Position numbers and translations under genes: made by a program | Source: Escherichia phage ALITA | DNA length: 64,000 bases | Sequence record: PP359570 | Strand: one strand, 5' to 3' | Notes under the pieces: model-generated | The model's input: the letters and a program-made list of their open reading frames with translations, nothing else | What the model was told of the DNA's origin: nothing | Databases searched by the model: none | In this document: positions 35,771 through 57,471 of the stretch, piece after piece | Layout: each line of letters starts with the position of its first letter | Position numbering within the stretch: position 1 is the first letter of the stretch

Positions 35771-36433
35771 TTATTTAATATTCAATTTTGCACAAAGACG
35801 TTGTACCGCTTTGGCATCGAACAAACTCCCACGAATAGTTCTCTTTCCTGATTCATTCAGATGTTTTGCAATCGTCATATATGGCGTTTTACAAGCTCTG
35901 TATGCAACTAAAGAATCTTTTAAAGAAAGCGCAAACTCTTTTGAGCGTTTTGCTTCTTCCGTTTTCGTATAATCTGTTCTTTTGTATTTAGGGTTTGCTG
36001 CACCAAGAAGCGTTCCCTTCGCTTTTGCTACTTTAAGGCTCTTCTTAACACGATCAGATATTGCACGAGCCTCTTCTTCTGCCAGAACTGCTAAAATATT
36101 TATTATCATATTTTCAGCGGAGGGCATAGTTGCTATTCGTACATTAATCATCTCTAACAAGGTTGCAACAGAAGCTGTGTTACGTCCAAGACGGTCAACC
36201 TTAGCAACAACAAGTGTAGCACCTGTTTCTTTGCAAAGATTAACAGCTTTTACAAGCTCTCTACGTTGCTTCCAATCGCCTTTACCCGAATAAAACTCTG
36301 CAAAGCTACCTACAATAGTATAATTTTCTTGTGAATCCAGGAAGCGTTGGATATCTGCTTCCTGTGATTCTATACCATACTGGTTGCCTTGTTGTTTCTT
36401 CTTAGAAAGTCGATGATACAGTACAAACTTCAT
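35771..36433 (-). CDS. serine recombinase (resolvase/invertase family)
   Basis: N-terminal YHRLSKKKQ (Y.R.S...Q catalytic-Ser context), VVAKVDRLGRN, C-terminal HTH-like tail. Confidence 0.75.
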   Translation of the reverse strand: MKFVLYHRLSKKKQQGNQYGIESQEADIQRFLDSQENYTIVGSFAEFYSGKGDWKQRRELVKAVNLCKETGATLVVAKVDRLGRNTASVATLLEMINVRIATMPSAENMIINILAVLAEEEARAISDRVKKSLKVAKAKGTLLGAANPKYKRTDYTKTEEAKRSKEFALSLKDSLVAYRACKTPYMTIAKHLNESGKRTIRGSLFDAKAVQRLCAKLNIK

Positions 36434-36490
36434 AATACCCTCCTGTTCTGTTACAGGAAGTATGCACTACCTTAACGTTAAAGTCAACAG

Positions 36491-36706
36491 TTAAGTAGTG
36501 GTAATATCATCTTCTTGAATATCAGGATCAACTTCTGCAAAGATAGCTTCTACAGGAATTTCTTCACCTGCTATTCTAGAAAGAAGCACTGAACCAATAG
36601 CTTTTGCGTGTTCTTCGGATTCCGCATAAACATTAGTCCCTGTGTCTTTTTTCTTAGTTTCGTTAAAATATACCAGATAGTAATTGTATGCCATTATTCT
36701 TCCCAA
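36491..36706 (-). CDS. hypothetical protein (71 aa)
   Basis: ORF-track ORF. Confidence 0.4.
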   Translation of the reverse strand: MGRIMAYNYYLVYFNETKKKDTGTNVYAESEEHAKAIGSVLLSRIAGEEIPVEAIFAEVDPDIQEDDITTT

Positions 36707-36945
36707 TCGTTGTTACGAGCATTTTCAAGAACCTTGACAACTTCTGCATACTCTACAGCTAAACCAGCACACACTTCAGCTTGTTTTGCAATTGCTTGTT
36801 TAAAGAACATAGCGATTGCAACACTCTGTGTTGTGTGAATGTTATCTGCTTTAGTTGATACGTGAAGATCAAAATCTTCTTCATCAAAGGGGAGTTCCAT
36901 AGTAACAATAAATTTCTCGGTCATAAAAATGCTCCTCTTAAACAA
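36694..36945 (-). CDS. hypothetical protein (83 aa)
   Basis: ORF-track ORF. Confidence 0.4.
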   Translation of the reverse strand: MFKRSIFMTEKFIVTMELPFDEEDFDLHVSTKADNIHTTQSVAIAMFFKQAIAKQAEVCAGLAVEYAEVVKVLENARNNDWEE

Positions 36946-37906: not shown

Positions 37907-38560
37907 TTAATTATCAGAGGATACTTTATCAAGTTTTTCAGAGACTGTCAATACTTTTTCTTGTGATTCTTTCATTTCTGCTAAAATACTTTCAGCTTCA
38001 TCACTATCAGGATCACCAGTCAACAGCATACTAATTAGTTGCTCCTTGCTGAAGTTCAGAATATCTTCCGCTGTTAGCTCCAGTTGTTCTTCGATCTCTT
38101 CAACAAAAGTTTCACCCCCTGAAAAAGCATCTCGTAGTTTTGCAACTTCCATTGCTTCTTCTGGGGTTGCCCCAGCGTCTAAAGCTGCTAAAGCAAAATC
38201 TGCCCCACTACCAACAGCATAGTAATCTTCAGTTAAAGGATATGCTCGCGTTGGATTATTACCCTCGTGCATATAAATTTTACCGTCTGGGTGAACAACC
38301 AATGCCACAAACTCTTCATCTTCTTTATCAGGATCGGACTGGATCACCAAACCTGGGATTGTCTCTTGTGCTGCTTGGCATTGTAAGTTTTGTTCGAACC
38401 AAGAAAAGAAAGTCAGGATAGAAGACAGACGTCCTGCACCACCAACAAGGTAGTCCCCAATTTTACGCACTTTCTTGAAATTTAAAGTGTCTACACGACT
38501 ACCTACTGTTACTTTACCGTCAGACAGAATTTTGTTACGTGTTGCAATAATTGTTGTCAT
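37907..38560 (-). CDS. HslV-like Ntn-hydrolase (proteasome beta-type) peptidase with acidic C-terminal extension
   Basis: MTTIIATRN (Thr right after Met), KKVRKIGDYLVGGAG, YYAVGSGADFALAALDAG parallel E. coli HslV MTTIVSVRR / KKVRRL..AGFAG / AIGSGG.YAQAAA; extra ~50 aa D/E-rich tail. Confidence 0.6.
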   Translation of the reverse strand: MTTIIATRNKILSDGKVTVGSRVDTLNFKKVRKIGDYLVGGAGRLSSILTFFSWFEQNLQCQAAQETIPGLVIQSDPDKEDEEFVALVVHPDGKIYMHEGNNPTRAYPLTEDYYAVGSGADFALAALDAGATPEEAMEVAKLRDAFSGGETFVEEIEEQLELTAEDILNFSKEQLISMLLTGDPDSDEAESILAEMKESQEKVLTVSEKLDKVSSDN

Positions 38561-39087: not shown

Positions 39088-39840
39088 TTAGTATACTTCC
39101 GTGATGAACTGAGACAAACGGGAACGTTGGTTATCAGCAGTTGTCATTTCAACATAACCAATAAAATCCACAATAGCTTCCCTTTCTCCTTCTTCATTAA
39201 TAGGAACAACACGATCTAACAAATCACCTAACCCGTTAGCTCTTCGTTTAATTGCATATGTTTGATTAACATCGCCCATAATGACAATACGTGTATTAAG
39301 ACCTGCTCGCTCAAGGAGAAGTTTTACTGTATTTGGTGACATAAGTTGAACTTCATCAATAAGAATAATGCTGTTATCCCACGTAGCACCTAGTGCATAG
39401 TTTGGAATATTAAGTTCAATTTTGCCACTTGCAATATCGTTTTCCAATTTATTTGCAGTCATAAACTGTTGGAAAATTCTTTTAGTTGATTCGTAGTGTG
39501 CTGCTAGTTTATCAGTCTTATCTCCAGATAAGAAACCAATTTGATCATCACCTACTTCTGTCGGGTTTTTAAGGAAAATCAACTTTCTGAAGTCACCAGC
39601 TTTAAGCATTTGCAATGCTTTCCATAGTGCTGTTGTCGTTTTTCCTGTTCCTGCTGGGGCATTAACAATGGTTAAATCATTCCAAACCATGCTTCTTACA
39701 ATAGCTTCTTGATTCCCAACAGGGGTAAATTCATCAAGACGGTAATCATCATTTCCTACTGCTTTAGCCGCATAACGACTGGCACGTTTGTCATCATTGG
39801 CTGCTGATTGACGACGAGCCTTTGCGGTTTTATTTCCCAT
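39088..39840 (-). CDS. phoH: PhoH-like ATPase
   Basis: Walker A PAGTGKTT, LIFLKNPTE...GFLSGDK, Walker B ILIDEVQ. Confidence 0.85.
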   Translation of the reverse strand: MGNKTAKARRQSAANDDKRASRYAAKAVGNDDYRLDEFTPVGNQEAIVRSMVWNDLTIVNAPAGTGKTTTALWKALQMLKAGDFRKLIFLKNPTEVGDDQIGFLSGDKTDKLAAHYESTKRIFQQFMTANKLENDIASGKIELNIPNYALGATWDNSIILIDEVQLMSPNTVKLLLERAGLNTRIVIMGDVNQTYAIKRRANGLGDLLDRVVPINEEGEREAIVDFIGYVEMTTADNQRSRLSQFITEVY

Positions 39841-39854
39841 GTTTGCACTCCTTA

Positions 39855-39878
39855 TAAAAGGGGCTTTCGCCCCTTTGT
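39855..39878 (-). terminator. GC hairpin with GAAA tetraloop downstream of lysozyme gene
   Basis: aaaaggggcTTTCgcccctttg; approx. Confidence 0.5.
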
Positions 39879-40379
39879 TTAGTTATAAGCGTCTAATGTT
39901 CCAGTTTTAAGTACCTGAATTACACGCTCTGCGCGATTAGGCGTTTGGCGATACCATTTACTTTTACGTAAATTTATAGAGGCTTGAGTATAATATGAAT
40001 TACTCACTAAAGTCAAGCTATTTTTGAAAGATTCTGCACCTTTCAATCCCATTTGAAATACCATATTGATAATAGCCATTTTACGATTAGGACTTACTTT
40101 ATCGTAAATAGGAGATAATATGGTGCTTGAATGGATCTGTTGTATCGCTTTCTTTACGTCACTCTCAAAGATTTTTCTAGCTTCCGCTTCAGTAATAACC
40201 CCATTGGTTTTTCTACCTACTAAGTTATCAAGAATGCGTATAGCTTCTGCTTTATCTTTGCGTTTTGTCAGAAGGTGTCCAATACCAACTGTCCAATACC
40301 CTTCGGTATCAGGATACACAGTTAGCTTTAGTCCTTCATCAAAACGTAACATATCAAACACATCAACTACTTTAGCCAT
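39879..40379 (-). CDS. e: T4-type lysozyme (endolysin)
   Basis: DMLRFDEGLKLTVYPDTEGYWTVGIGHLLTK and INMVFQMG...WYRQTPNRAERVI closely parallel T4 e. Confidence 0.95.
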   Translation of the reverse strand: MAKVVDVFDMLRFDEGLKLTVYPDTEGYWTVGIGHLLTKRKDKAEAIRILDNLVGRKTNGVITEAEARKIFESDVKKAIQQIHSSTILSPIYDKVSPNRKMAIINMVFQMGLKGAESFKNSLTLVSNSYYTQASINLRKSKWYRQTPNRAERVIQVLKTGTLDAYN

Positions 40380-40539: not shown

Positions 40540-40806
40540 TTACTCCGCAATCTGAGCCATGAATTCACGTAGTTCAGAAAAACCTCCTACGTGGGTTAGC
40601 TGTTCACCATCTTCCACAAAAATCTGAGGAAATGTACGTGGTAGAACACCTGTTTTCTCTAAGACCAGATTCTGAATCTGATCTAAAGAATAGTCTTCAT
40701 CTAAGGTAAGGTATTTAAAATCCTGTTCACGCTGTTCTAGTAGAATCTTAGCGTTAGTGCAGAAAGGACAATTTGGTTTACCGTAGATAATAAAATTCAT
40801 TTTCAC
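40540..40806 (-). CDS. nrdC: glutaredoxin (NrdC-like)
   Basis: IIYGKPNCPFCTNAK (CPFC active site) and C-terminal HVGGFSELREF parallel T4 NrdC. Confidence 0.8.
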   Translation of the reverse strand: MKMNFIIYGKPNCPFCTNAKILLEQREQDFKYLTLDEDYSLDQIQNLVLEKTGVLPRTFPQIFVEDGEQLTHVGGFSELREFMAQIAE

Positions 40807-41633
40807 TCCTTGTTTAAAAGTATAGTTAAAGTTCTTACAATACCGCTATCAACACTTCGCGGATTTAAAGTAGGATCTGTTTTTAAATAAGATGTTGCTG
40901 GTCTGACTGCTTTGGAGTTATAGGTTGAAGCAGACACAGGATTAACTGTAACCGATAAATCTATAACAAGAAATATCTTACGTGCAAAGTCATACCAAGA
41001 AATATAATCTGCACCTGCATAGTGTACAATTTTACTATTTACACCATCTTTTACAAGTTTAAAAATTGTTTCTGCAAGATCAGGTGCATAAGTAGGACAC
41101 GACAAATGATCACATACTACATTAAATTCTTTTTGACCACCGTTGTAGCGTTCCAACATAGTTTTCAAAAAGTTATGTCCAAATTCACTATAAACAGAAG
41201 CTGTTCTGATAATAAGTGCTGTAGGACAAACTGTTTGTACTAAAGTTTCACCTAATTGTTTACTATAACCGTAGGTGTTCAAGGGGTTTGTTTTACTATC
41301 TTCTGTACCAGCAACATGCCCATCAAAAACATAGTCTGTTGAAATATGTACAAACTGTATCAGTAAATCATTACATGCTTTGGCAATGTTTGTTGCACCG
41401 TATGCATTAACATTTATACAGGTGTTAACATCTTCTTCAGCTTTATCTACTGCCGTGTAAGCCGCACAATTCACAACAACATCAGGCACATGCTGTACAA
41501 GATTATTCATAACATCTTTAAAGTTGGTAATGTCTACATCACTTGCTTCAATCAAAATAACATCTTCGGGCGCAACTTTTGCCAAAGACTGTCCTAATTG
41601 ACCTTTTGAACCAAAGATTAAAAATTTTGTCAA
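40803..41633 (-). CDS. rmlD: dTDP-4-dehydrorhamnose reductase
   Basis: MTKFLIFGSKGQLGQSL nucleotide-binding start, SDR-like STDYVFDG; last gene of rml operon. Confidence 0.8.
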   Translation of the reverse strand: MTKFLIFGSKGQLGQSLAKVAPEDVILIEASDVDITNFKDVMNNLVQHVPDVVVNCAAYTAVDKAEEDVNTCINVNAYGATNIAKACNDLLIQFVHISTDYVFDGHVAGTEDSKTNPLNTYGYSKQLGETLVQTVCPTALIIRTASVYSEFGHNFLKTMLERYNGGQKEFNVVCDHLSCPTYAPDLAETIFKLVKDGVNSKIVHYAGADYISWYDFARKIFLVIDLSVTVNPVSASTYNSKAVRPATSYLKTDPTLNPRSVDSGIVRTLTILLNKE

Positions 41634-42184
41634 AGTATGATCTCCTTTAGTGTTTTTGCTTCCTGATCTTTTTGTGACAAGATAGGTTTAAAATTAATAT
41701 CATTAAAGATTAAATCAAAACCCCAATCTATATTGATATCTGGATCATTCCACGCAAGACTACACTCTGAAGTCGGATCGTAATATTCTGTACACTTATA
41801 TTCAAAATCAGCAATATCGCTAATCACAACAAAGCCATGAGCGAAACCAGGAGGAATCCAAAATTGTGTTTTATTCTTTTCAGATAAGAGAACACCTACC
41901 CATTCTCCAAATGTTGGACTACCAACTCTAATATCTACAGCAACATCATAAACTTCACCACGAACACAACGTACTAACTTCCCTTGTGGGTTTTTCTTTT
42001 GAAAATGAAGCCCACGTAGAACTCCTCGGATAGAACGTGAATGGTTATCTTGGACAAAGTTTTGTTTACCTATGTATTGATCATATAAAGCCTGATTAAA
42101 ACTTTCTAAGAAAAAACCACGTTCATCTCCGTAAACGTCAGGTTGAATGATCAACAAATCTTCGATTTTTGTTGCTTGAATCAT
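41630..42184 (-). CDS. rmlC: dTDP-4-dehydrorhamnose 3,5-epimerase
   Basis: RGFFLESF...GVLRGLHFQ...VRCVRGEVYDVAVDIR cupin blocks. Confidence 0.85.
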   Translation of the reverse strand: MIQATKIEDLLIIQPDVYGDERGFFLESFNQALYDQYIGKQNFVQDNHSRSIRGVLRGLHFQKKNPQGKLVRCVRGEVYDVAVDIRVGSPTFGEWVGVLLSEKNKTQFWIPPGFAHGFVVISDIADFEYKCTEYYDPTSECSLAWNDPDINIDWGFDLIFNDINFKPILSQKDQEAKTLKEIIL

Positions 42185-42196
42185 TTAATCTCCCCT

Positions 42197-43066
42197 TTAT
42201 TTTAATTTAAGTAAATACTTGCCGTAGTCTGTTTTACTTAAAACCTCTCCAGAACTTTTTACGGAATCTAAAGTAATCCATTCATTTTTAAAAGCAATCT
42301 CTTCTAGACATGCAACCTTCATACCTTGTTGCTTTTCTATTGCATGAACAAATTGAGATGCTTCCATAAGACTTTCATGTGTTCCTGTATCCAGCCAAGT
42401 GAAACCTCTTCCTAGCTTACAGACACGTAAAGCCTTTTCTTTCCAGTACATCTCATTTATATCTGTGATCTCTAACTCCCCTCTAGCAGAAGGCTTAACG
42501 CTTTTAGCTTTCTGTATAACAGAATTATCGTAAAAGTACAAGCCTGTAATTGCATAGTTGCTTTTTGGTGCTTTTGGTTTTTCTTCAATACTTACCACTG
42601 TACCTTCAGAATCAAACTCAACAACACCAAATCTTTCAGGATCATTTACGTGATACCCAAAAATATTAGCTCCACCATTCTTTTCAATATGTTCTCTAGC
42701 AGAATCTAAAATGCTACCAAAACTCTGACCAAAGAATAAATTATCACCTAGAACAAGTGCTACAGAATCTTCACCAATAAAGCTCTCACCAATAATAAAC
42801 GCTTCTGCTAAACCTTTTGGGCTGTCCTGTATTGCATACTGTAGGGAAACACCAAAAGAAGAACCATCACCTAGAAGATTTACAAAATTAATTTGATCTT
42901 CTGGTGTTGTAATTATTAGTATTTCCCTAATTCCAGAAAGCATTAGGACAGAGAGTGGATAATAAATCATAGGTTTATCGTAAATTGGTAATAGTTGTTT
43001 ACTAACCCCTTTAGTAACTGGGTAAAGTCTTGTTCCACTACCACCCGCTAAGATAATACCTTTCAT
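42197..43066 (-). CDS. rmlA: glucose-1-phosphate thymidylyltransferase
   Basis: [18 protein letters not shown]...[17 protein letters not shown] signature. Confidence 0.9.
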
Positions 43067-43074
43067 ACTCCTCC

Positions 43075-44064
43075 TTAAACTTTATTTTCCCACCACTCTT
43101 TGTTATCTACATACCAATCAATGGTTGAATAAAGTTTTTCTTCAAATGTGCCTTTAGCTTTCCACCCTAATTCCTTTTCAATCTTATAAGGATTCACTTC
43201 ATATCTTAGATCATGTCCAGGTCTATCTGTAACCATCTCAATTAGGCTACAAGCATCTGTTTCAGATGGATACACCGCATCCATATAATCACAAATCATA
43301 TAGATTACATCAATATTAGTTCTAGGGTTTCTGCTCCCAATATTATATGTTTCTCCAGATTTGCCTTTAGTTACTACTAGGTGTAATGCTTCTGCGTGAT
43401 CGTCAACGTATAACCAGTCTCTTACCTGAAGACCATTGCCATAAACAGGGATTGGTTTATTCATCAAGATATTTGTTATCGTTTTAGGTATTAGTTTTTC
43501 TGGATGATGGTATGCTCCAAAATTATTTGAACAATTTGTTATAACTGTCGGAATACCATAAGTACGATGCCACGCTCTTACCAAATGATCGCTTGCTGCC
43601 TTAGATGCAGCATATGGACTACTTGGCTTATAAGGATTCTGTTCTGTAAACGGATAATCCCCTTCTTCCATATCACCATATACTTCATCTGTTGAAATAT
43701 GATGGAACATTTTAAGATTTGATTTATCTCCCATTAAACGAACAGCTTCTAGGAGATTAAATGTCCCAACAATATTTGAATTTATAAAAACACTCGGTGA
43801 TGCTATTGAATTATCTACGTGACTTTCTGCTGCAAGATGCATTATATAATCTGGATTAACATCTGCCACAATCTTAGCAGTTAACTGCGCATTTGTCAAG
43901 TCAACACGACAAAACTTTACATTGGGTGTTTCTGATAAATTTCTAGGGTCTGAAGCGTAACCCCATTTATCTATAACGTAAATATCATTTTTAGTATTTT
44001 TAGCCAGGAAACGAACTACTGCACTTCCAATAAAGCCTAAACCACCTGTTACTAAGTATTTCAT
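43075..44064 (-). CDS. rmlB: dTDP-glucose 4,6-dehydratase
   Basis: [36 protein letters not shown] catalytic YxxxK. Confidence 0.9.
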
Positions 44065-44258
44065 TTAGTCTCCTTCCAATTATTCCCTTCAGTAAAAATA
44101 ATACCTTCATAAAACAACCATCTGGAACCTTTTTCAACAGGAACAGGAATCTCTTCTTCAGTAAAGTTATAAACTTCTCTAGCATCTTCTAAAAGTGATG
44201 CAAATGTTTTTGGACTTACTGTTACGCGAGGAGCATTGATCAGTTGATCTAGCATCAT
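44061..44258 (-). CDS. hypothetical protein (65 aa)
   Basis: Track ORF 44061..44351 trimmed to ATG after taaggagga SD. Confidence 0.4.
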   Translation of the reverse strand: MMLDQLINAPRVTVSPKTFASLLEDAREVYNFTEEEIPVPVEKGSRWLFYEGIIFTEGNNWKETK

Positions 44259-44271
44259 TCTACTATCCTCC

Positions 44272-44598
44272 TTACCAAACGTGTTGAGAAATAATAGTTT
44301 CCGTTTCAATGTTATATTTTTCAAGAAGTTGTGCGTAGGCTTCTTTTGCATTCTTATTTAGTTGCTCAAGATCTACAGCTATACTTCCTTCGCCACCTTC
44401 TAAATAAATGCCATATATGCAATAAGATTCATCAGCATCATAGAAAGGAGAGATACGGCTTAAATCAAGACCTTCTTGTAAGAACCAATTAAAATCTCCA
44501 TCAAATTCTTCTTCAATTCTAGGATCTTCTCCTACAGCCCCTTCCCATTTATTAAAAGGTGCACCCTGTAACATACGCCATGCAATATCAACCCCCAC
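44272..44598 (-). CDS. hypothetical acidic protein (108 aa), GTG start
   Basis: ORF-track ORF; GAGGAGG SD then GTG. Confidence 0.45.
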   Translation of the reverse strand: MGVDIAWRMLQGAPFNKWEGAVGEDPRIEEEFDGDFNWFLQEGLDLSRISPFYDADESYCIYGIYLEGGEGSIAVDLEQLNKNAKEAYAQLLEKYNIETETIISQHVW

Positions 44599-44734
44599 TA
44601 TCTTCCTCCTCTTCTTTTTCTTCTGTATGAACGAAACCTAAGCCGTTACAATTCCAACAAGGAATAAATTGTTCCATACTAACAATAAAATTCCCAGTGC
44701 CGCCGCAGATAGGACAAATACTTACATCGTCCAT
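44588..44734 (-). CDS. small zinc-ribbon protein (48 aa)
   Basis: Below track cutoff; MDDVSICPICGGTGNF...PCWNCNGLGF... (two CxxC pairs); codon-counted. Confidence 0.4.
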   Translation of the reverse strand: MDDVSICPICGGTGNFIVSMEQFIPCWNCNGLGFVHTEEKEEEEDSGG

Positions 44735-44736
44735 TA

Positions 44737-44943
44737 TTAAAGCTCCTCAATCTTTTCTAACATCTGTTTTAACTCATTCTCTGTTAACAGAATTTCTGTG
44801 ATACCATCATAAGTTTCTACCATCAGAGTAAAACATTTCTCTCCATCTGAACACACAAAAGCACCACCTTCATCTTCTGTTAAGTCAGAATTAATATCTA
44901 CATCAACAAAATCAATCATCTTTTTCTCCTTTGATAATTTCAA
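44737..44943 (-). CDS. hypothetical acidic protein (68 aa)
   Basis: ORF-track ORF. Confidence 0.4.
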   Translation of the reverse strand: MKLSKEKKMIDFVDVDINSDLTEDEGGAFVCSDGEKCFTLMVETYDGITEILLTENELKQMLEKIEEL

Positions 44944-45130
44944 ACTTGGCTACACCATTAACTATAATATGACCGCAAGACAGAACTCCTAGCCAATGAT
45001 CACCATTCTTTTTTAAACGTTTACCGTAAACATCACAGAAACCATTCTGTAATTCGGAAGCCTCATAAGAGGCTCCCTTTTCGAAAACGTCTTTGAAGTC
45101 AGAAATTAATCCAACACAAAGTAGTTTCAT
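44912..45130 (-). CDS. hypothetical protein (72 aa)
   Basis: ORF-track ORF; start overlaps nrdB stop. Confidence 0.4.
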   Translation of the reverse strand: MKLLCVGLISDFKDVFEKGASYEASELQNGFCDVYGKRLKKNGDHWLGVLSCGHIIVNGVAKFEIIKGEKDD

Positions 45131-46215
45131 TAGAAGTCTAACTCCTCGTCATCACTTACATCTTTATTTGCTGAATTCAGTTTGTAAGCTGTAATTTGGA
45201 TCTCCTGTGCTGCTGCTTGAATTTGATCTGGGTTTAACCAAACATCCATCCAAGGCAGTGGACTTTTCTTCGGTGCACGGAATTTGTGTTTCATTTTCAG
45301 TCTGCGATAGATAGGTGCAGCATTGAAGTAAACCCAAAGTTTGAACAACTCTGCGTTACCACCAACGATAACCCTTCCTTCACTAAACAGATAGTCACAC
45401 CAATCTTCCTCTTGTCCAACTACCGTGTCAAGAATTTCTGTCAGAACGTCGATATTATCTTCGTATACTTTTCTCCAAACAGGATCTTTCAGCAGTGCAT
45501 CAATAATAGCATAATCCATTTTAACGTGCAATAGTTCATCCAACATAATTTTTTGAATGAGTTTAGCTGCACCTACAAACAATTGCTGCTCTGCTAAGGC
45601 AAATGTTGCAGCAAAAGAGGATATGAATTGAATGCCTTCCAGACCGATAAGTGCAATCATTCCTTTCAAGATCAGTAGACGAAGGTTATCATCCTTCTCA
45701 ATCAGACCTAGAGCATATTTATGTCCTGCCTCTGCCAGATCACCCATTATCTCTTCAACTATACCCATCCTCTGGAAGATTCTTTCATTCTCCATAATCT
45801 GATCGATAACTTCATTTGGATTAGGGATACACTGACGAATAATTTCAGAATATGTCAAAGCGTGTAAAACTTCCATTTCTGATTGCTTCATCATCATTGC
45901 ACATGCTTCGTTGTTGCTTAAAAATGGTGCAAACAAAGTGATGATTGATTTAGCAAGTGAATCATTTTCCCATTGGAAAGATAGGTTTTTGATCATAACA
46001 TCATAGTTGCTTTTAGAACAAGCTACGAAATCTTTTCGTGTCTGATCTAAGTTTACTTCGTTTTCATCCCAATCTTGCTGTTTTTGTAGTTTGTACAGAC
46101 GATGCATTTCTGGGTATGTTACATTAATAGAATCAAAAATACCTAACTGTTCTCCCAAAAATACAGGGTAGAAACCTTCTTTGTAAGTGTCGTTGTATAA
46201 GTTAATTGCTGCCAT
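45130..46215 (-). CDS. nrdB: ribonucleotide reductase class Ia small (beta) subunit
   Basis: 361 aa, uninterrupted; ferritin-like helices with acidic/His iron-ligand pattern and C-terminal acidic tail DDEELDF. Confidence 0.9.
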   Translation of the reverse strand: MAAINLYNDTYKEGFYPVFLGEQLGIFDSINVTYPEMHRLYKLQKQQDWDENEVNLDQTRKDFVACSKSNYDVMIKNLSFQWENDSLAKSIITLFAPFLSNNEACAMMMKQSEMEVLHALTYSEIIRQCIPNPNEVIDQIMENERIFQRMGIVEEIMGDLAEAGHKYALGLIEKDDNLRLLILKGMIALIGLEGIQFISSFAATFALAEQQLFVGAAKLIQKIMLDELLHVKMDYAIIDALLKDPVWRKVYEDNIDVLTEILDTVVGQEEDWCDYLFSEGRVIVGGNAELFKLWVYFNAAPIYRRLKMKHKFRAPKKSPLPWMDVWLNPDQIQAAAQEIQITAYKLNSANKDVSDDEELDF

Positions 46216-46537
46216 TTAAATCCTCCACAATATCACACATTGCTTTTATTGTATCAATGTGTTCTCTCTCCATACCATCATCTAGGTAAGCCTTCTCTAA
46301 TGCGTCCCATACACTCTTTGTGAGTAGTATAGTAACCTCTCCCTCATACCTTGCTCTGGTTAAAGCATACCAGGTAGCTATGGGATCATTGGAAGCCCAT
46401 ATTTCAACACTGGAAAATTGAAAACCTGCAATATAATGACAACACCAATCGAATGTAAAATCTTTACTATCTACCAGTGTATAATTTCCCCAGCGTCTTT
46501 GTGGTGTTGCTCCAGGTAATACAACTAATGTAGGCAT
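46202..46537 (-). CDS. hypothetical protein between nrdA and nrdB (111 aa)
   Basis: Track ORF 46202..46612 trimmed to ATG after aaggagg SD. Confidence 0.45.
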   Translation of the reverse strand: MPTLVVLPGATPQRRWGNYTLVDSKDFTFDWCCHYIAGFQFSSVEIWASNDPIATWYALTRARYEGEVTILLTKSVWDALEKAYLDDGMEREHIDTIKAMCDIVEDLNGSN

Positions 46538-46549
46538 ATTCCTCCTTAA

Positions 46550-46571
46550 GAAAGGGGGACAAAGCCCCCTA
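46550..46571 (-). terminator. GC hairpin just downstream of nrdA
   Basis: agggggacaaagccccct; possible attenuator/processing site; approx. Confidence 0.35.
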
Positions 46572-46577
46572 GTTTCA

Positions 46578-48839
46578 TTACATCTTACAAGCCTCACAAC
46601 CGGATTCTTCATCCTCTTGAGCGAGTGAGGTTGCCGATTTTGTTCTGCTATTTAGATAGTACAAAGATTTACCACCAAGTTTTGCAAACTGAAGAATATA
46701 TTGCATTTCTGATTTAATGGATAAACGACCACCTTCCATCTTAGAATAGTCAATCCACTTATCACATGATGCACCTTGATCTAAGAATTTAGTCAACAGC
46801 CCATATGCTTCAGCCATATCTTTATCTGGTGTATCCCAAGCCGATTGGTAAATATCTTTTAGTTTATCGTAGTCTGGCACAATAAACAGAACATTACCCT
46901 TTTGGCTTTGTTTATAAACTATAGTATCACGTACAGGATACACAGAGTTAGTCGTATTACTTACAAGACTACTGGACTCATTTGGAGCAATAGCTGCTAA
47001 TACACTATTTCGGATACCGCCCTGTGCAATGATATCTTGTCGTAAACCTTCCCAATCCATTTTAAGTTTAAAATTGCCAATATCGTCTACAGCTTTAGCG
47101 TAGGTGTCAATAGGCAACCATCCTTCAGGCCATTTGGTTTTATGCATCCATTCTGCATTACCTTTCTCTTTTGCCAAACGAAGAGAAGCTCTTGCTAACC
47201 AATAATAATGTCTTTCTGCTAATTCGTGAATTAGTTTTTTGCCGTAAGGATCTGAATAAGTAACAAAATTACTTGCCAGATAATGTGCAAGGTTTGTAAT
47301 ACCTACACCGATAGACCTACGTGCTTTAGCAGTGATTTCGTTATGTTTAAACGGATACTGCATTGTTTCAATAACATTATCAATAGTTAGAACGGTATAA
47401 TATGCAACATCTTCATATTCTTCTGGTGTAACACGACCAGCTACAATAGAAGACAGGAAGCATAATGCCAATTCTTGGTCTTCTGTATTCTCACCTGTGA
47501 AAAGATCAGTCATATTGTGAAATGCTTTCGTAGGTAAGAAAATTTCTTGGCACAAGTTTGACTGGTAAATAACATCCTTAAACGGAGTATGCTTATTAGC
47601 ATTATCCGCAAAGAACATATAAATACGTCCTGTTTCTGCTCTTTGTGTAATAATTTCTGCCAGAAGATCTCGTGCTTTTACAAACTTCTTCTTAATTCGT
47701 TTGCGACTAACTTTTTCATATACTTCTTCAAACTCTTCCTCGCTTTTATAAAGCGCCTCATAGAGTTCTGGTGCTTCGTCATAACTGACTAGCATCCAAT
47801 CTTTACCTTTTGCTGCACGTCGCAGGAAAGCATTGTTTACTACAATAGAGTAATCAAGTTTATCTACTCGTTTTTCACTAACAGTAGTTGGGTTTTTCAA
47901 ACGTACCAGATCTTCAAAATCAGGTTCTAATATTGTAAACGTTACTGTTGCACTTCCACCACGGCTTGCTTGTTTTGATGCTCCAACACTTGTCTCCATC
48001 CATTTCAGATATGGTAAAAGACCACCGTGAACGATACGGTTGTTCTTAACACCTTGTCCTGTAGCACGGGTTTGGAGGTTAACACCAATACCTGCATTAT
48101 TCAATGTATATTCATGAGCAAGATAGTTAGCAATTGCTAAAGACTCTGCTGTATCATCTGCTCTAAACAGACAACAAGAAGCACTACCTTTAATCTTAGT
48201 ACGCAAAGTTGTTAAATAAGGCGATGGTAAATTAATCTTAAGATCACTTACGTAGGTATATAGACGTTTAATGTCTTCTACTCTGCGATCTTTTGGTTGA
48301 ATTTCCATTACCTTCATTGCTACACCAATGAATAAAAACTGTGGTGATTCAAAAACAACATCATTGATCGCATCTTTCACAAGATACTTATCAACCATCT
48401 GGCGCAGTACGGAATAACCATAAGTTAGGTTTTTATCGTGATTGACAATCTTACCAATCTCAATAATTTCTTCTTCTGTATAATCCATTTTTCCCCAATA
48501 GCCTTTACTTACAGACATATTGTAGAAATCCAGGAGGGAGGGGATATTGTGATATCCCCCATGAGCCTGTTTATAAATCATACCAAGAAGTAACCGACCT
48601 GCCATATCACTATATGCCTGATCTTTCTTATCAATACATGCTGCTATCATAGCTTTATGTAAATCACGAGTAGGCACACCGTCGTAACAACGTTTAACAG
48701 CTTCGAGTTCGATTTCAGACCAATTTAATTTACCAGCAGCAAACTCTGACCATTTACGAAGTTTTTCTGGATTAAATTCTTCTTTCTTGCCGTTTGTTTT
48801 TGTTACATAACGGATAGATTTGCTTAGATACTGAGTCAC
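46578..48839 (-). CDS. nrdA: ribonucleotide reductase class Ia large (alpha) subunit
   Basis: 753 aa; N-terminal ATP-cone-like segment, catalytic core blocks, C-terminal CEACKM-type Cys pair. Confidence 0.95.
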   Translation of the reverse strand: MTQYLSKSIRYVTKTNGKKEEFNPEKLRKWSEFAAGKLNWSEIELEAVKRCYDGVPTRDLHKAMIAACIDKKDQAYSDMAGRLLLGMIYKQAHGGYHNIPSLLDFYNMSVSKGYWGKMDYTEEEIIEIGKIVNHDKNLTYGYSVLRQMVDKYLVKDAINDVVFESPQFLFIGVAMKVMEIQPKDRRVEDIKRLYTYVSDLKINLPSPYLTTLRTKIKGSASCCLFRADDTAESLAIANYLAHEYTLNNAGIGVNLQTRATGQGVKNNRIVHGGLLPYLKWMETSVGASKQASRGGSATVTFTILEPDFEDLVRLKNPTTVSEKRVDKLDYSIVVNNAFLRRAAKGKDWMLVSYDEAPELYEALYKSEEEFEEVYEKVSRKRIKKKFVKARDLLAEIITQRAETGRIYMFFADNANKHTPFKDVIYQSNLCQEIFLPTKAFHNMTDLFTGENTEDQELALCFLSSIVAGRVTPEEYEDVAYYTVLTIDNVIETMQYPFKHNEITAKARRSIGVGITNLAHYLASNFVTYSDPYGKKLIHELAERHYYWLARASLRLAKEKGNAEWMHKTKWPEGWLPIDTYAKAVDDIGNFKLKMDWEGLRQDIIAQGGIRNSVLAAIAPNESSSLVSNTTNSVYPVRDTIVYKQSQKGNVLFIVPDYDKLKDIYQSAWDTPDKDMAEAYGLLTKFLDQGASCDKWIDYSKMEGGRLSIKSEMQYILQFAKLGGKSLYYLNSRTKSATSLAQEDEESGCEACKM

Positions 48840-48850
48840 TTCCTCTCCTA

Positions 48851-49111
48851 TTAATTGTGCATGTTTAGAACATCTACATCATAACCGCCACGCATCTCAT
48901 TATATAAGCCATTTGCGTATAGAAAACCTTCAAAATGATCTATACCTTCAAAACCTTTTGCCTTTGCTTTGCGGTCTGCTTCTTGTCTTTTTGGAGATAA
49001 TCTTTTAGATGTATCAAGGATAACTGTTACATTGCAACCTAATGTTTCATCAAAATAGACTTCAATTTCACAGCCTTCATATTTATTACTTTCTGTCATT
49101 TGGCCTCTCAA
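48851..49111 (-). CDS. hypothetical protein (86 aa)
   Basis: ORF-track ORF. Confidence 0.45.
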   Translation of the reverse strand: MRGQMTESNKYEGCEIEVYFDETLGCNVTVILDTSKRLSPKRQEADRKAKAKGFEGIDHFEGFLYANGLYNEMRGGYDVDVLNMHN

Positions 49112-49522
49112 TTAGAATTCAGAATCATCATCTCGTGATGGATCATGTTCATTTCCGAAGTCTTCCATTTTGATATGAGAGCTACCCCAACCTGTAAAAT
49201 CTTCTTCTCCAAAGTGCAAAATATCTACACCTTGATAGATTCGCTTATATTTATAGTCCTGTCGAACTGGGAAAGTATACAATGTAGTATTTGCAAACAC
49301 CACACGTCGATTGTTGTTACTACGAATATTAACACCACGTTCTACTGTATAATGTCCATCGGTAGACATACCAAGCATTACTAATGCTGCTCGCAATGTA
49401 GTGTTATGATACTCGTGAGGAATTTTTCCTCCGTGCTTTTTAGCCATTTCTTTCCAGATCGGTGTAGCCTTAATGGTAGACATACTTACGGTCGCCCAAA
49501 TGGTTGTATTAATTAGTGACAT
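49112..49522 (-). CDS. hypothetical protein (136 aa)
   Basis: ORF-track ORF; preceded on - strand by promoter + hairpin. Confidence 0.5.
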   Translation of the reverse strand: MSLINTTIWATVSMSTIKATPIWKEMAKKHGGKIPHEYHNTTLRAALVMLGMSTDGHYTVERGVNIRSNNNRRVVFANTTLYTFPVRQDYKYKRIYQGVDILHFGEEDFTGWGSSHIKMEDFGNEHDPSRDDDSEF

Positions 49523-49539
49523 AAATTCTCCTTCTCTCT

Positions 49540-49601
49540 TTTAAGGAGAGCATAGCTCTCCTAACGTTAGCCTATACTACACGAATCTCAATTAAAAGTC
49601 A
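49540..49601 (-). promoter_or_regulatory. sigma70-type promoter + 5' hairpin on - strand
   Basis: - strand reads TTGACT-17-TAGTAT then AGGAGAGCtatGCTCTCCT hairpin, SD, ATG; approx. Confidence 0.4.
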
Positions 49602-49619
49602 ACTATAATTTTAAATTGA

Positions 49620-50591
49620 TCACCATTTTGTATGGTTAGTCAAAAGTTGACGATGTTGAATCCAACCACAGAAGTTTCCACTCCACAAACGATGTTTACG
49701 ATCCATATGTGTAATACCTTCTTCCCAAGAAGTAGGGAACGGAGGAATATTAATACCACCTTTCTGTTGTTTTAATCCTGACAAATCCATTTCTTTCATT
49801 GGCGTTGCCTGGTGTTCAAACGGAGATGCATGTACCTTTTGTCCAGACAGCAAACGAGAATAGATATCCAATGCTTTATCTTTAGTATCATTCAATTTAC
49901 GATAACTTACCTGAGCGCAACAAGAAGCTGAAATAGCTTTTGCTTCCTCTTCTGTCAACATTTTCTCGTTGGAGAAGGTTTCACCCAAGAAATAACGGAT
50001 CATACCAGTTTCTGGATCTCGATCACGATTAACGTAAGGTGTATGCCATTCCCCTGGGAAAAGAAGATATGGTTCAGAAGATTCATACAGTTTTTTAATT
50101 TCTTTAGCAAGAGCCTCAATAGTAGGATCTGCATCAGCATCTACGCGCAACCACAAGAAGTTTTCTAGCTCTGTAGTGGTTACTACAGTCTTCATACGTT
50201 GGAATGGTTCTAGTAGGCGGTTTGCAACCTGTTTATGATAACCAGCAAGGGCAAACTCTTCTGCAAAACGTGCAGCACTTAGCGCAGCTAAGTCCCACCA
50301 TTCTTTTGCAGTGTAACCTGCATCAATCAGGGCATCGTGATCTGTGCCTTTATCTTGCATACCTGGTTGGTTAGCACCAAAACGATAAGGACGTGCTGGA
50401 GATTGCCGTACCATTTCAATTAGAGTTTTAACAGGAATAGCTCGACTTGATGCGGCATTACGAGAAAACAAACGATGCGTCATCAATTCAGAGTGAATGA
50501 TTCGGGGATATTCAAGTTCAAAGGTAACAATATCCTTACCTTCAGATGTTTGAGAGTGTGCAATAATTTTTGCTGAAATAGAATTTGTCAT
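49620..50591 (-). CDS. thyX: flavin-dependent thymidylate synthase (ThyX-like)
   Basis: IVTFELEYPRIIHSELMTHRLFSRNAASSRA parallels ThyX FTFEI...SHQLVRHRIASYSQQSQRY, but first Arg of RHR is Thr here. Confidence 0.6.
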   Translation of the reverse strand: MTNSISAKIIAHSQTSEGKDIVTFELEYPRIIHSELMTHRLFSRNAASSRAIPVKTLIEMVRQSPARPYRFGANQPGMQDKGTDHDALIDAGYTAKEWWDLAALSAARFAEEFALAGYHKQVANRLLEPFQRMKTVVTTTELENFLWLRVDADADPTIEALAKEIKKLYESSEPYLLFPGEWHTPYVNRDRDPETGMIRYFLGETFSNEKMLTEEEAKAISASCCAQVSYRKLNDTKDKALDIYSRLLSGQKVHASPFEHQATPMKEMDLSGLKQQKGGINIPPFPTSWEEGITHMDRKHRLWSGNFCGWIQHRQLLTNHTKW

Positions 50592-50600
50592 TATTTCTCC

Positions 50601-51191
50601 TTAAGGTAGTAAAATACTTTCAATTTCTTCCCACTGATTATCTAAACCAGTGATAATTACATTAGGAAGTTTCTTTAACTCTTCCAAGTATGGATCTTCG
50701 TAAATAGTGTTGAAATATATTTTCAACGTTTCATCTGGAAATAGGACAAGATTTTCAGCCCTATCGTCAATAGTTACGTCGCAAGGTAATAAGTATTTTT
50801 CTTTTGTTGCGAAAAAGCCATTACCAGATGTTCTACTAAAGTCCACTTTATCTAAAGATCGTGTTACGTGTCTATATTTAGAACTAAGGTGTCCACCCTT
50901 AGTGTGGCTTGCTATAGATATATTAGCTCCATTTGCAATTATACGATGAACAACATCTGTACTATTAGGTACTACTCCCATAGTATCATATAGATGTTGG
51001 TTATCCCAAAAAGAGTAAGGATCTACACCAAATTGCTTTTTAAAATCAGGAAAATATTTCGTAATATCATAATGCACAGTCTTATGTGCCTTATCAAATT
51101 TGATATTAGATCTACTTACCGCATTTAACCAACTCAACCATTCTACATCGGCAGGAGCTATTACTAAATCCCAATCACATACTAGACGCAT
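50601..51191 (-). CDS. HAD-family 5'(3')-deoxyribonucleotidase-like protein (196 aa)
   Basis: Track ORF 50601..51305 trimmed to MRLVCDWDLVIA (aggagaa SD); D.D nucleophile motif at N-terminus. Confidence 0.55.
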   Translation of the reverse strand: MRLVCDWDLVIAPADVEWLSWLNAVSRSNIKFDKAHKTVHYDITKYFPDFKKQFGVDPYSFWDNQHLYDTMGVVPNSTDVVHRIIANGANISIASHTKGGHLSSKYRHVTRSLDKVDFSRTSGNGFFATKEKYLLPCDVTIDDRAENLVLFPDETLKIYFNTIYEDPYLEELKKLPNVIITGLDNQWEEIESILLP

Positions 51192-51738
51192 TATTTCTCC
51201 TGTTATAACATTTTCTACACATTGTTTCGTAAATGTCTTCTCCTCCAATAACAATCTGTTCTTTAGAGTCGATAAGTCTAGCATTGAAAATAGCTTTTCT
51301 TCCACATTTACAAATGCTTTTCAATTCTGTAATTGAATCTGCTATGGCTAATAACCGTTCAGAACCTTCGAACAATTCTGTAGCAAAATCTGTTTTAAGC
51401 CCATAACAGAATACAGGAATATCGTAATTATCTACCACATCTCCAAGAATGTCAACCATATCTTTAGTTAGGAATTGTGATTCGTCCACAAACACTGCAT
51501 CTACTGGATTTTCTTTAAGTTGTGTATAAATTTCCAGCATATCTTCTTTTGTTTTAACTGGTTTTGCTTCCTCTTTAATACCTATCCTAGAAGCAATAGC
51601 ACAACCAGATCTAGTATCTAAAGCTGAAGTTAAAAGAAGAACTTTCATATTTCTTTCTTTATAGTTCCAAGCTGTTTGTAGCAGATGTGTGCTTTTACCA
51701 CTGTTCATCGGACTGTATCGGAAATAAAGTTTAGCCAT
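51175..51738 (-). CDS. tk: thymidine kinase
   Basis: YSPMNSGKSTHLL P-loop, VDESQFL, C-terminal CKCG...CRKCY Zn motif; near-collinear with T4 Tk. Confidence 0.9.
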   Translation of the reverse strand: MAKLYFRYSPMNSGKSTHLLQTAWNYKERNMKVLLLTSALDTRSGCAIASRIGIKEEAKPVKTKEDMLEIYTQLKENPVDAVFVDESQFLTKDMVDILGDVVDNYDIPVFCYGLKTDFATELFEGSERLLAIADSITELKSICKCGRKAIFNARLIDSKEQIVIGGEDIYETMCRKCYNRRNNASSM

Positions 51739-51783
51739 ATTTTCTCCTCTAACGCTCCCATTTGTGGGAGCGATAATACTTTA

Positions 51784-52359
51784 TTATTTCTCTTCGTCAA
51801 GAAGAATTTTTACTATTTGTTTTCTTCGCTTACTTACTGTACTTTCTGGTGAAATTCCGCGCTTCGTTAGCCAATTTTTATCCTTTTTAGACTGGCATAA
51901 AGCTATCGCTTCCTTCTCCGCTTTTGCTTCCCTGAATGTCATATCGTGCTTGTCAGCATAAGCCAGGATAGCGTTACACTGCTTACAAACTACACGCAGG
52001 TCGTCTTCTGTTACGTACAATAGGCGTAAAACAAAACTTGGGATATCTTCATAACAGGTTAATGTACCTGCTGCATTAATATGGTCTACTTGAAAGTCTT
52101 TCATACCTCCTGTATGTCCACACAATTCACACTTACAATTCCAAACCTGTTTCGGTTTGCCTGTTTTCTTATCTAAAACTATATTTCCATCTTTATCCAA
52201 CCTATCCGCTTTAAATCGTACAGATTGGATCTTTTTTATCTTATTCGGGTGTCTCACCCATGCTTTCCTTAAGCAACCCCTTAAATATGTATAAAAGGCT
52301 GCTTGAGTTTTCCAAGGTGTTCCATCTCCCCAAATAACTTTAGGTTCTTTATTTTCCAA
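51784..52359 (-). CDS. HNH homing-endonuclease-like protein
   Basis: CELCGHTGGMKDFQVDHINAAG ... CKQCNAILAYADKH fits HNH pattern. Confidence 0.6.
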   Translation of the reverse strand: MENKEPKVIWGDGTPWKTQAAFYTYLRGCLRKAWVRHPNKIKKIQSVRFKADRLDKDGNIVLDKKTGKPKQVWNCKCELCGHTGGMKDFQVDHINAAGTLTCYEDIPSFVLRLLYVTEDDLRVVCKQCNAILAYADKHDMTFREAKAEKEAIALCQSKKDKNWLTKRGISPESTVSKRRKQIVKILLDEEK

Positions 52360-52543
52360 TAGTGCTCACCTTTTTAGCTACATAATCTCCTGGTGGAATG
52401 TTATATTTAAAGAAAAGCATACGGTCTAAACCAGCTTTACACATGTTTTCTGTGATTGTGATTGTATATAGGAGTTTATCTCCACGCTTATTGTATATTT
52501 TATATACTTCACCCTCTCCGTATTGTTTACCGTGAGAAGCCAT
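52349..52543 (-). CDS. hypothetical protein (64 aa)
   Basis: ORF-track ORF. Confidence 0.4.
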   Translation of the reverse strand: MASHGKQYGEGEVYKIYNKRGDKLLYTITITENMCKAGLDRMLFFKYNIPPGDYVAKKVSTIGK

Positions 52544-52928
52544 CTACACTCTCCTTCAATGTTTCAATAGCATCTGCTGCTTCAATATACTTACCTTTGT
52601 ACATTGCTTTTAAAGCCTTACGAACAAGATCATCGTCTGTGTATAAATCAATTAGCTGATTAGCTAACTCAATTTTTACAGGATTTTTTAAGTTAGGGTA
52701 GGCTTCATACAACATATTGTAATACTTATCACTTAATTCTTTTTCAATATGAATAACGTGAATCGCTTTGTTTAGGTTGATCACACGATCACCTTTGTTT
52801 CGACAAGCATACTTAGCTAACTTAGTGAAACAAGGAGTTGCACCAATTAGATATGCAAGTTCCAAAGGTTGCATACGCATACGTTTGTAGTGATCACCAT
52901 CAATTTGAATATCCAGTGCTGTAGTCAT
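52527..52928 (-). CDS. hypothetical protein (133 aa)
   Basis: ORF-track ORF. Confidence 0.5.
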   Translation of the reverse strand: MTTALDIQIDGDHYKRMRMQPLELAYLIGATPCFTKLAKYACRNKGDRVINLNKAIHVIHIEKELSDKYYNMLYEAYPNLKNPVKIELANQLIDLYTDDDLVRKALKAMYKGKYIEAADAIETLKESVDGFSR

Positions 52929-52940
52929 AAATCCTCCAAA

Positions 52941-52966
52941 AATAAAGGGGCTTTCGCCCCTTTTTT
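52941..52966 (-). terminator. rho-independent terminator with GAAA tetraloop
   Basis: aaaggggcTTTCgccccttttttatt, T-runs both sides; approx. Confidence 0.6.
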
Positions 52967-52967
52967 A

Positions 52968-54961: not shown

Positions 54962-55053
54962 TTGATCGTAGTCTATTGCAAGAATTGTGTTCTCGTCAAC
55001 ATATTTGTGCAGGTCTTCCGGTTGGATTAAAATGTAACCGCTAATATTACCTC

Positions 55054-55266
55054 CTATTCATCATCTGAACTCTCTGTTGAGAATGTTCGTGTGTAGGGAC
55101 ACTGACGACTTGCAGAAACCTCTATAACCTTGTCGTACATACCGTTAGAGTAAAAACAGTATTTTGTACTTCCATAAACTTGTTCTCCAGAATTAATTAA
55201 AGTTATTTGACCAGCATAAGAATAAGAACTGATTACTAAAAGTAAACCGACAAGAAGTTTTTTCAT
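55054..55266 (-). CDS. small secreted protein with signal peptide (70 aa)
   Basis: MKKLLVGLLLVISSYSYAGQ signal-peptide-like N-terminus; two Cys. Confidence 0.45.
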   Translation of the reverse strand: MKKLLVGLLLVISSYSYAGQITLINSGEQVYGSTKYCFYSNGMYDKVIEVSASRQCPYTRTFSTESSDDE

Positions 55267-55341
55267 TGGTGTGTCTCCTTAAAAGCCCACCTAACTAAGT
55301 AGGTAGGCATATTAACACATATTAAATTAGTAAGTCAAGTA

Positions 55342-56226: not shown

Positions 56227-56236
56227 AGTTTTCTCC

Positions 56237-56515: not shown

Positions 56516-56524
56516 AATACCTCC

Positions 56525-56550
56525 AATAAGCCCCCGAAGGGGCTTTATTT
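56525..56550. terminator. GC hairpin (terminator-like)
   Basis: aagcccccgaaggggcttt + T-rich; approx. Confidence 0.4.
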
Positions 56551-56551
56551 C

Positions 56552-57274: not shown

Positions 57275-57283
57275 TGTTTCTCC

Positions 57284-57463: not shown

Positions 57464-57471
57464 ATTACCTC

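Follow-up and report, generated by a model that had tools for sequence, protein, structure and literature searches.

The dTDP-L-rhamnose operon of Escherichia phage ALITA and a distant glycosyltransferase cluster as its probable partner

Why does a lytic phage carry all genes required for the synthesis of dTDP-L-rhamnose (dTDP, deoxythymidine diphosphate)? The question is raised by four consecutive genes, rmlB, rmlA, rmlC, and rmlD, in a 64,000-nucleotide (nt) stretch of the genome of Escherichia phage ALITA (sequence record PP359570), which is called the window below. Neither the operon nor its puzzle is new. The four genes carry dTDP-rhamnose annotation in GenBank (>120 Stephanstirmvirinae genomes), Olsen et al. 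(2020) called the pathway "peculiar" and suggested that hydroxymethylated nucleotides are rhamnosylated (PMC7552041), and Maffei et al. (2021) found phi92-like phages "exceptionally susceptible" to restriction-modification (RM) despite a "putative dTDP glycosylation machinery" (PMC8594841). We found no paper that settles the function of the phage operon and none that joins Phapecoctavirus, glycosyltransferase, and rhamnose, and papers on the glycosylation of 5-hydroxycytosine (5hoC) and on DNA modifications in the Durham collection mention neither these phages nor rhamnose.

The operon itself is thus ordinary and documented, and what can be gained is a narrower question, with DNA as an unlikely acceptor and with a defined partner locus of four glycosyltransferases (GTs). 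We tentatively favor the reading that the operon provides a host-independent supply of dTDP-L-rhamnose for this four-GT module, which would glycosylate a target other than DNA, most likely the virion.

The rml genes and their products

The genes of the pathway have the following positions in the window:

43075..44064, minus strand, rmlB, dTDP-glucose 4,6-dehydratase, 329 amino acids
42197..43066, minus strand, rmlA, glucose-1-phosphate thymidylyltransferase, 289 amino acids
41630..42184, minus strand, rmlC, dTDP-4-dehydrorhamnose 3,5-epimerase, 184 amino acids
40803..41633, minus strand, rmlD, dTDP-4-dehydrorhamnose reductase, 276 amino acids, TTG start

Together with a downstream glutaredoxin-family gene they form a block of five consecutive open reading frames (ORFs) on the minus strand (44064-40540). 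There are 8 nt between rmlB and rmlA and 12 nt between rmlA and rmlC, and the start of rmlD overlaps the stop of rmlC by 4 nt.

Family membership was judged by scores above the curated cut-offs of NCBIfam equivalog models, with Pfam searches as a cross-check. All four proteins scored above the respective values, i.e. RmlB with 443 bits (TIGR01181, cut-off 365), RmlA with 471 bits (TIGR01207, cut-off 361), RmlC with 260 bits (TIGR01221, cut-off 156), and RmlD with 254 bits (TIGR01214, cut-off 224), and the Pfam assignments agree in every case. The top PDB matches of three proteins were the Salmonella enterica enzymes (RmlB, 1g1a, E 6e-117, 57% identity; RmlA, 1iim, E 8e-125, 66%; RmlC, 1dzr, E 6e-64, 62%). 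For RmlD, Bacillus anthracis 3sc6 and Clostridium 1vl0 came first (E ~1e-44, 37% identity), and the S. enterica enzyme followed with E 4e-35.

Alignment to the solved structures showed that RmlB keeps GxxGxxG, T-D-E, and YxxxK, that RmlA keeps GGSGTRL, LGDN, and WLDTGT, that RmlC keeps the His of LRGLHFQ, the Lys of QGKLVRC, and the catalytic Tyr, and that RmlD keeps GSKGQLG (GxxGxxG), STDYVF (STD), and YGYSK (YxxxK). An earlier note on this DNA had proposed, from the letters and a list of ORFs, a full RmlB/A/C/D pathway with textbook motifs in a lytic phage. Its gene identities are borne out by the equivalog scores and by Pfam, the lytic context is correct, and the catalytic and cofactor residues are intact in all four proteins. 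Scores, motifs, and the purifying selection described below predict a working pathway, which would lead from glucose-1-phosphate and dTTP via dTDP-glucose, dTDP-4-keto-6-deoxyglucose, and dTDP-4-keto-rhamnose to dTDP-L-rhamnose.

The phage enzymes belong to the same four families and have the same catalytic residues as those of the bacterial rml/rfb genes in the O-antigen clusters of S. enterica and Escherichia coli. In contrast, the phage order is B-A-C-D, and the genes lie in a virulent phage among nucleotide-metabolism genes, whereas the bacterial genes lie in polysaccharide clusters. In addition, the phage operon has no adjacent GT, Wzx, or Wzy gene. In enterobacterial clusters the order is B-D-A-C.

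A terminator scan found no terminator-like site on the minus strand between 46555 and 37894, and the rml genes are therefore part of a long block that also comprises nrdA, nrdB, thyX, tk, and the genes for the glutaredoxin, lysozyme, and PhoH. They would be expressed within this nucleotide-metabolism block. A scan for sigma-70 promoters was uninformative on timing, with 39 sites compared to 39.9 expected from shuffled sequence.

Conservation and age of the operon

The rml region is 97.6-98.8% identical to that of about 55 Justusliebigvirus coliphages (phi92-like, Stephanstirmvirinae), phi92 included. In Phapecoctavirus genomes (phAPEC8-like), this locus likewise holds the operon, the amino acid identity being 55-71%, and the arrangement is syntenic in ESCO5. 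Synonymous sites are saturated between the two genera (pS 0.64-0.82), making dN/dS unusable at this distance, and hence selection was estimated within a genus. Among three Justusliebigvirus genomes, the four genes had 40-52 synonymous versus 9-12 non-synonymous differences, and pN/pS was 0.047-0.074. All four rml genes are under strong purifying selection.

RmlD falls into a phage-only clade from phage-sized contigs that reaches down to 50% identity, whereas no named cellular homologue, the best being from Bacteroidota, exceeds about 45% identity. The phage-only clade argues for an old acquisition, and the operon appears to have been maintained since then, not recently captured from a host O-antigen cluster. 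The GC content of the region is 0.35-0.36, near the 0.33-0.42 of the remaining window.

The database searches also returned records labelled "Campylobacter phage" with the host C. jejuni (GenBank MG065639, MG065645, MG065650, MG065656, and MG065689) that are about 98% identical to Justusliebigvirus coliphages or, in the case of B15, Phapecoctavirus-like. These records are probably mislabelled or contaminant coliphages.

A cluster of four glycosyltransferase genes

The search for a consumer of the sugar was extended beyond the window by reading the genome of the close relative phage alia (~98% identity; window position = alia position - 72,720). At alia 43,544-46,720, a primase/helicase gene and a gene for a SleB-like hydrolase flank a row of four annotated GT genes (gp047-gp046-gp045-gp044). 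The statement of the earlier note that there is no GT next to the operon is thus correct for the window, but the genome encodes four of them about 67 kb away. Neither the alia annotation nor a Pfam scan of most uncharacterized alia proteins of at least 180 amino acids yielded a further GT.

Two of the four proteins are GT-A-like and two are GT-B/GT4-like. The latter two, gp044 and gp045, are paralogues with 41% identity; both are members of a PHROG GT family and match Pfam Glyco_trans_1 weakly, while gp046 and gp047 fall into other PHROG GT families. NCBIfam gave no GT assignment for the phage proteins; a "rhamnosyltransferase" match of a GT-A from a distant relative (L016, see below) was not significant (E 0.008) and was rejected.

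A sequence search of the PDB with the phage GTs returned nothing significant, and structure prediction was therefore used. The AlphaFold models have a predicted local distance difference test score (pLDDT) of 90.7 for a 76%-identical gp046 homologue and of 95.0 for a 99%-identical copy of gp044. The model of gp044 is that of a GT-B/GT4-like enzyme, and its structural neighbors include sucrose-phosphate synthase, trehalose synthases, HepE, PglA, BshA, PimA, TarM, WlaC, WaaG, and WbnH; T4 AGT and T4 BGT as well as the GT of phage HY126 rank lower. The gp046-like protein has GlfT2, TarP, TarS, RmlT, and AvpGT among its top neighbors.

Linkage of the rml and glycosyltransferase genes

The two loci have very similar distributions. 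In a phage collection, the numbers of close records and of records with 60-80% identity were 54 and 73 for rmlA, 55 and 71 for gp046, and 53 and 74 for gp044. About 8-10 Klebsiella-phage records match each of the two loci, and both are syntenic in ESCO5. The lower identity bands contained no additional Escherichia or Salmonella records for either locus, and Vequintavirus relatives therefore apparently lack both.

A more direct connection is seen in two distant relatives, L016 (a 135-kb contig) and L029, in which a gene for an RmlB-like NDP-hexose 4,6-dehydratase, a short-chain dehydrogenase/reductase (SDR), is part of the GT operon (NDP, nucleoside diphosphate):

L016, 2667-3737, RmlB-like dehydratase, between the GT047-like and GT046-like genes
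L029, 8622-9686, RmlB-like dehydratase, between the GT047-like and GT046-like genes

The gene order in both is GT047, SDR, GT046, GT045, primase, and the dehydratase matches TIGR01181 with E 3e-50, below the cut-off. The location of this gene is the best evidence that the GTs may consume a 6-deoxyhexose nucleotide made by the phage, and the divergence of the inserted dehydratase suggests that the sugar chemistry of the module varies between lineages. On these grounds, the GTs of the phages studied here probably use dTDP-rhamnose.

Natural variants of the operon

Phage cardinal (PQ567651), a Justusliebigvirus with 98% identity, lacks window positions 41349-43687. In a blastn comparison with the window, the aligned blocks end at 41348 and resume at 43688, so that the 3' two-thirds of rmlB, all of rmlA and rmlC, and the 5' third of rmlD are missing. 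The breakpoints share 14 nt and fall into the HISTD motif, which the two SDR enzymes RmlB and RmlD have in common. The product is an in-frame RmlB::RmlD chimera of 302 amino acids. A nearly identical chimera (297 of 302 positions) is present in other public assemblies (P0082), and the deletion therefore circulates or recurs.

All four GT ORFs have their full length in cardinal. The phage is viable without rmlA and rmlC, so that growth on at least one host does not require the operon. A likely reason is that dTDP-rhamnose is a product of many E. coli strains. Close relatives that lack the operon and have identical DNA and virion composition had been named in the earlier note as a refuting case. 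The loss of rmlA and rmlC in cardinal corresponds to a part of it. Such deletion variants are ready-made controls.

In Klebsiella phages of the Stephanstirmvirinae, rmlC and rmlD are the sole rml genes at this locus. The RffH and RffG enzymes of the host, which belong to the pathway for enterobacterial common antigen (ECA), already make dTDP-4-keto-6-deoxyglucose, and therefore rmlCD is the minimal set. Its retention would be expected if dTDP-L-rhamnose is needed as the end product, and not the depletion of a pool.

Virion proteins as the preferred acceptor

We propose that the infected cell would gain a supply of dTDP-L-rhamnose that is independent of the O-antigen type of the host, and that the most likely consumer is the phage's own gp047-gp046-gp045-gp044 cluster. 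These soluble enzymes would build up a short glycan that contains rhamnose on an acceptor other than DNA, in our preferred version on virion proteins, forming a glycan coat as in mycobacteriophage Che8.

One argument for virion proteins comes from the homologues of gp046. The only ones in phages of non-enterobacterial hosts are found in 88 mycobacteriophage records. In Velveteen gp98 and McProf gp43 the similar part is the N-terminal GT-A domain (26-30% identity, E 1e-11 to 1e-13), and the genes of these two proteins adjoin orthologues of Che8 gp110 (83% and 46% identity, respectively). The GT Che8 gp110 has been reported to be essential for the glycosylation of the Che8 capsid (PMC12363180; PMC11256854). 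In addition, genes of the gp046/gp045 type form a mobile module of two, found at 24 IMG/VR loci. In lambdoid-like contigs it adjoins the lysis genes, with either the gene for antiterminator Q or terminase on its other side, and in another contig it is flanked by a tail-fiber gene and terminase. All of these positions are in late regions.

Three observations weigh against virion proteins. BLASTP found no similarity of gp044 to Che8 gp108, of gp046 to gp109 and gp110, or of gp047 to gp110; many structural neighbors of the GTs work on lipid-linked glycans; and the GTs of the Stephanstirmvirinae are encoded among replication genes. The likeness to the virion glycosylation cassette gp108-110 of Che8 (Freeman et al. 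2023, as summarized in PMC12363180 and PMC11256854) consists in a phage-encoded cluster of soluble GTs. In contrast to Che8, the phages discussed here infect Gram-negative hosts, have the cluster beside replication genes, and encode a sugar-nucleotide pathway as well. The glycosylation of capsids or fibrils in giant viruses and chloroviruses (PBCV-1 A64R, Mimivirus R655 and R699) is similar only at the level of folds; PBCV-1 and Mimivirus are viruses of eukaryotes that use UDP- and GDP-sugar routes.

Overall, a virion protein as the acceptor is possible, though we would not call it probable. The complete scenario, in which phi92-like and phAPEC8-like coliphages coat their virion proteins with a rhamnose-containing oligosaccharide made by the four GTs from self-made dTDP-L-rhamnose, is rather doubtful in its entirety. 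If true, this would be the first description of glycosylated virions in phages with Gram-negative hosts, and a portable GT-A/GT-B module would be shared with temperate lambdoid phages. The phi92-like and phAPEC8-like phages are among the coliphages with the broadest host ranges and are popular candidates for therapy and biocontrol, and glycosylation of the virion could change antibody recognition, stability, and pharmacokinetics, as has been reported for mycobacteriophages.

DNA as the acceptor

The suggestion of Olsen et al. (2020) would place rhamnose, alone or within an oligosaccharide, on a modified base as a shield against restriction, as in the T-even phages, RB69, DLP3, and HY126, and DNA hypermodification had also been listed as an option in the earlier note. 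The sensitivity of the relatives Bas60-62 to RM, which has been reported as exceptional (PMC8594841), argues against such a shield. The sole thymidylate-synthase-like gene (49620-50591, 323 amino acids) is of the ThyX type (TIGR02170, E 7e-9, below the cut-off) and not a ThyA-type hydroxymethylase or 5hoC synthase. Of a route via a C5-methyltransferase and a TET enzyme, only a Dcm-like methyltransferase is present. No match to the TET/JBP or ThyA families was found in a scan of most of the unknown alia proteins of at least 180 amino acids. One candidate, alia gp052, was considered as TET-like and rejected with low certainty, having a match to Cupin_3 with E 0.056 and no convincing HxD...H motif of 2-oxoglutarate oxygenases. 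As a separate observation, alia encodes several DNA methyltransferases.

The frequencies of restriction sites point in the same direction. In alia, the median ratio of observed to expected occurrences is 0.60 for 6-bp palindromes, compared to 1.0 for non-palindromes. The sites of HindIII, PstI, ScaI, PvuII, and BamHI (AAGCTT, CTGCAG, AGTACT, CAGCTG, and GGATCC) are absent, with 20-47 expected, as are at least seven more 6-bp palindromes; over all absent sites the expected numbers range from 4 to 47. GATC, CCWGG, GAATTC (EcoRI), and GATATC (EcoRV) are not depleted, and the retention of EcoRI and EcoRV sites matches the sensitivity of the phages to both enzymes in the BASEL assays. The avoidance of palindromes is the signature of exposed DNA and carries over to the window by the identity of about 98%.

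For comparison, RB69, DLP3, HY126 (UDP-arabinose, arabinosylation of 5hoC), and Pootjesviridae RL38JI combine NDP-sugar synthesis with DNA glycosyltransferases. These DNA-glycosylating phages have a ThyA-homologous synthase for the 5hoC nucleotide (5hodCMP) with D169N, cytosine is fully replaced, and the DNA is restriction-resistant. In contrast, ThyX is present here, no hydroxylase was found, the relatives are RM-sensitive, and a close relative avoids restriction sites. Taken together, these differences, with no base-hydroxylating or hydroxymethylating enzyme among the scanned proteins, disfavor hypermodified DNA and make DNA glycosylation an unlikely explanation to which we give little credence. 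A sparse, motif-specific modification of DNA is possible.

Other explanations

The GTs could instead remodel the host envelope. Supplied with dTDP-rhamnose at the inner membrane face, they might act on intermediates linked to undecaprenyl diphosphate (Und-PP), e.g. Und-PP-GlcNAc, or on the core of lipopolysaccharide (LPS), thereby altering or blocking O-antigen, ECA, or NGR, so that superinfection is excluded or the progeny is kept off debris. This would be a new strategy of superinfection exclusion or debris avoidance in a virulent phage. It is compatible with the preference of many structural neighbors for lipid-linked or cell-wall acceptors (PglA, WlaC, PimA, HepE, TarM, WaaG, and WbnH for gp044; GlfT2, TarP, TarS, RmlT, and AvpGT for the gp046-like protein), and with the position of the lambdoid GT pair in the classical moron slot beside Q and the lysis genes. 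Furthermore, these phages bind surface glycans, need wecB/NGR and waaC/waaG, and carry many glycan-degrading tail fibers. On the other hand, the scanned alia proteins include no Gtr-like protein, flippase, polymerase, or polyprenyl-phosphate GT, and seroconversion components (GtrABC, Oac, Wzy-type) were not found in the alia annotation or the Pfam scans of this virulent phage. The phages are strictly lytic with a short cycle, no change of LPS or ECA after infection has been reported, and the mycobacteriophage link favors virion proteins. Envelope remodelling is therefore fairly unlikely in our view. We regard another soluble acceptor as slightly less likely again, i.e. the rhamnosylation of a non-structural protein of host or phage or of a small molecule for host takeover or counter-defense, for which EarP acting on EF-P and glycosylating toxins are analogies. 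The GTs are cytoplasmic and encoded in early/middle-type blocks with genes for replication and nucleotide metabolism, and the GT4-like neighbors include the small-molecule enzymes BshA, sucrose-phosphate synthase, and trehalose synthases, in agreement with this explanation; the late positions of the GT pair in other phages and the Che8 connection were described above as arguments for the virion.

A purely metabolic effect would require no phage GT at all. The operon might drain dTTP or glucose-1-phosphate, divert dTDP-4-keto-6-deoxyglucose from the synthesis of ECA, or top up the rhamnosyltransferases of the host. WecE and the pair RmlC/RmlD compete for one common intermediate, the Klebsiella relatives retain exactly rmlCD, and cardinal is viable without rmlA and rmlC, all of which would agree with an effect of this kind. 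However, with RmlA and RmlB the level of the intermediate would rise and not fall, rml and the GT cluster occur together, relatives have a dehydratase gene inside the GT operon, and all four enzymes are under strong purifying selection. The phage also invests in dTTP: nrdAB, thyX, tk, and a gene for an NT5C-like protein are part of the rml transcription block, which makes the drain of the dTTP pool considered in the earlier note implausible. We regard a metabolic effect without phage GTs as highly improbable, and glycosylation by the four-GT module, with the virion as its most likely target, as the preferred reading.

Neighboring genes and further observations

The last gene of the five-ORF block lies downstream of rmlD and is not part of the sugar pathway:

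40540..40800, minus strand, glutaredoxin-family gene with a CPFC motif, 86 amino acids

Its start is ATG 40800, as in GenBank, preceded at a distance of 5 nt by an AAGGAG Shine-Dalgarno motif (40811-40806) within the 3' end of rmlD; the TGA of rmlD (40805-40803) is followed by AA and then by the ATG. The two genes are closely packed without overlap or fusion. The 4-nt overlap described earlier is an artefact of the longest ORF, which starts at GTG 40806, and both the Shine-Dalgarno motif and GenBank support ATG 40800. The protein matches Pfam Glutaredoxin with 45 bits (cut-off 22.9) and is below the cut-off of every NCBIfam glutaredoxin model, so that its earlier designation as nrdC is right as to the family but is a name by analogy. 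The genes for lysozyme (39879-40379) and PhoH (39088-39840) follow just downstream, as had been noted before. The 38-nt gap between them contains a perfect 8-bp GC-rich hairpin at 39857-39876 (AAAGGGGC-TTTC-GCCCCTTT), which has a terminator-like score on the plus strand only, opposite to the genes.

Elsewhere in the rml transcription block, window positions 49620-51738 comprise a compact dTMP module of thyX, a gene for a 234-amino-acid protein, and the thymidine kinase gene. The 234-amino-acid protein has a weak match to NT5C (deoxypyrimidine 5'-nucleotidase). Just downstream of the phoH block, a gene at 37907-38560 encodes an HslV-like (proteasome beta-type) peptidase with the N-terminus MTTI; no HslU partner was noticed nearby.

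Beside the GT cluster, alia 48,700-58,100 contains a Ter-type cluster (TerD, TerF-like vWA, TelA, and TerC) that also includes genes for a ComF-like phosphoribosyltransferase, a Macro domain protein, and a HAD hydrolase. The distant relative L015 shares the genes for TerC, TelA, vWA, and TerD. A gene for a NADAR protein lies apart from this cluster at alia 76,217-76,768, corresponding to window positions 3,497-4,048. The "hypothetical" protein gp036 (alia 35,782-36,729, 315 amino acids) ends with DFDDDIPF, an acidic tip typical of single-stranded DNA-binding proteins, and is probably the single-stranded DNA-binding protein of the phage.

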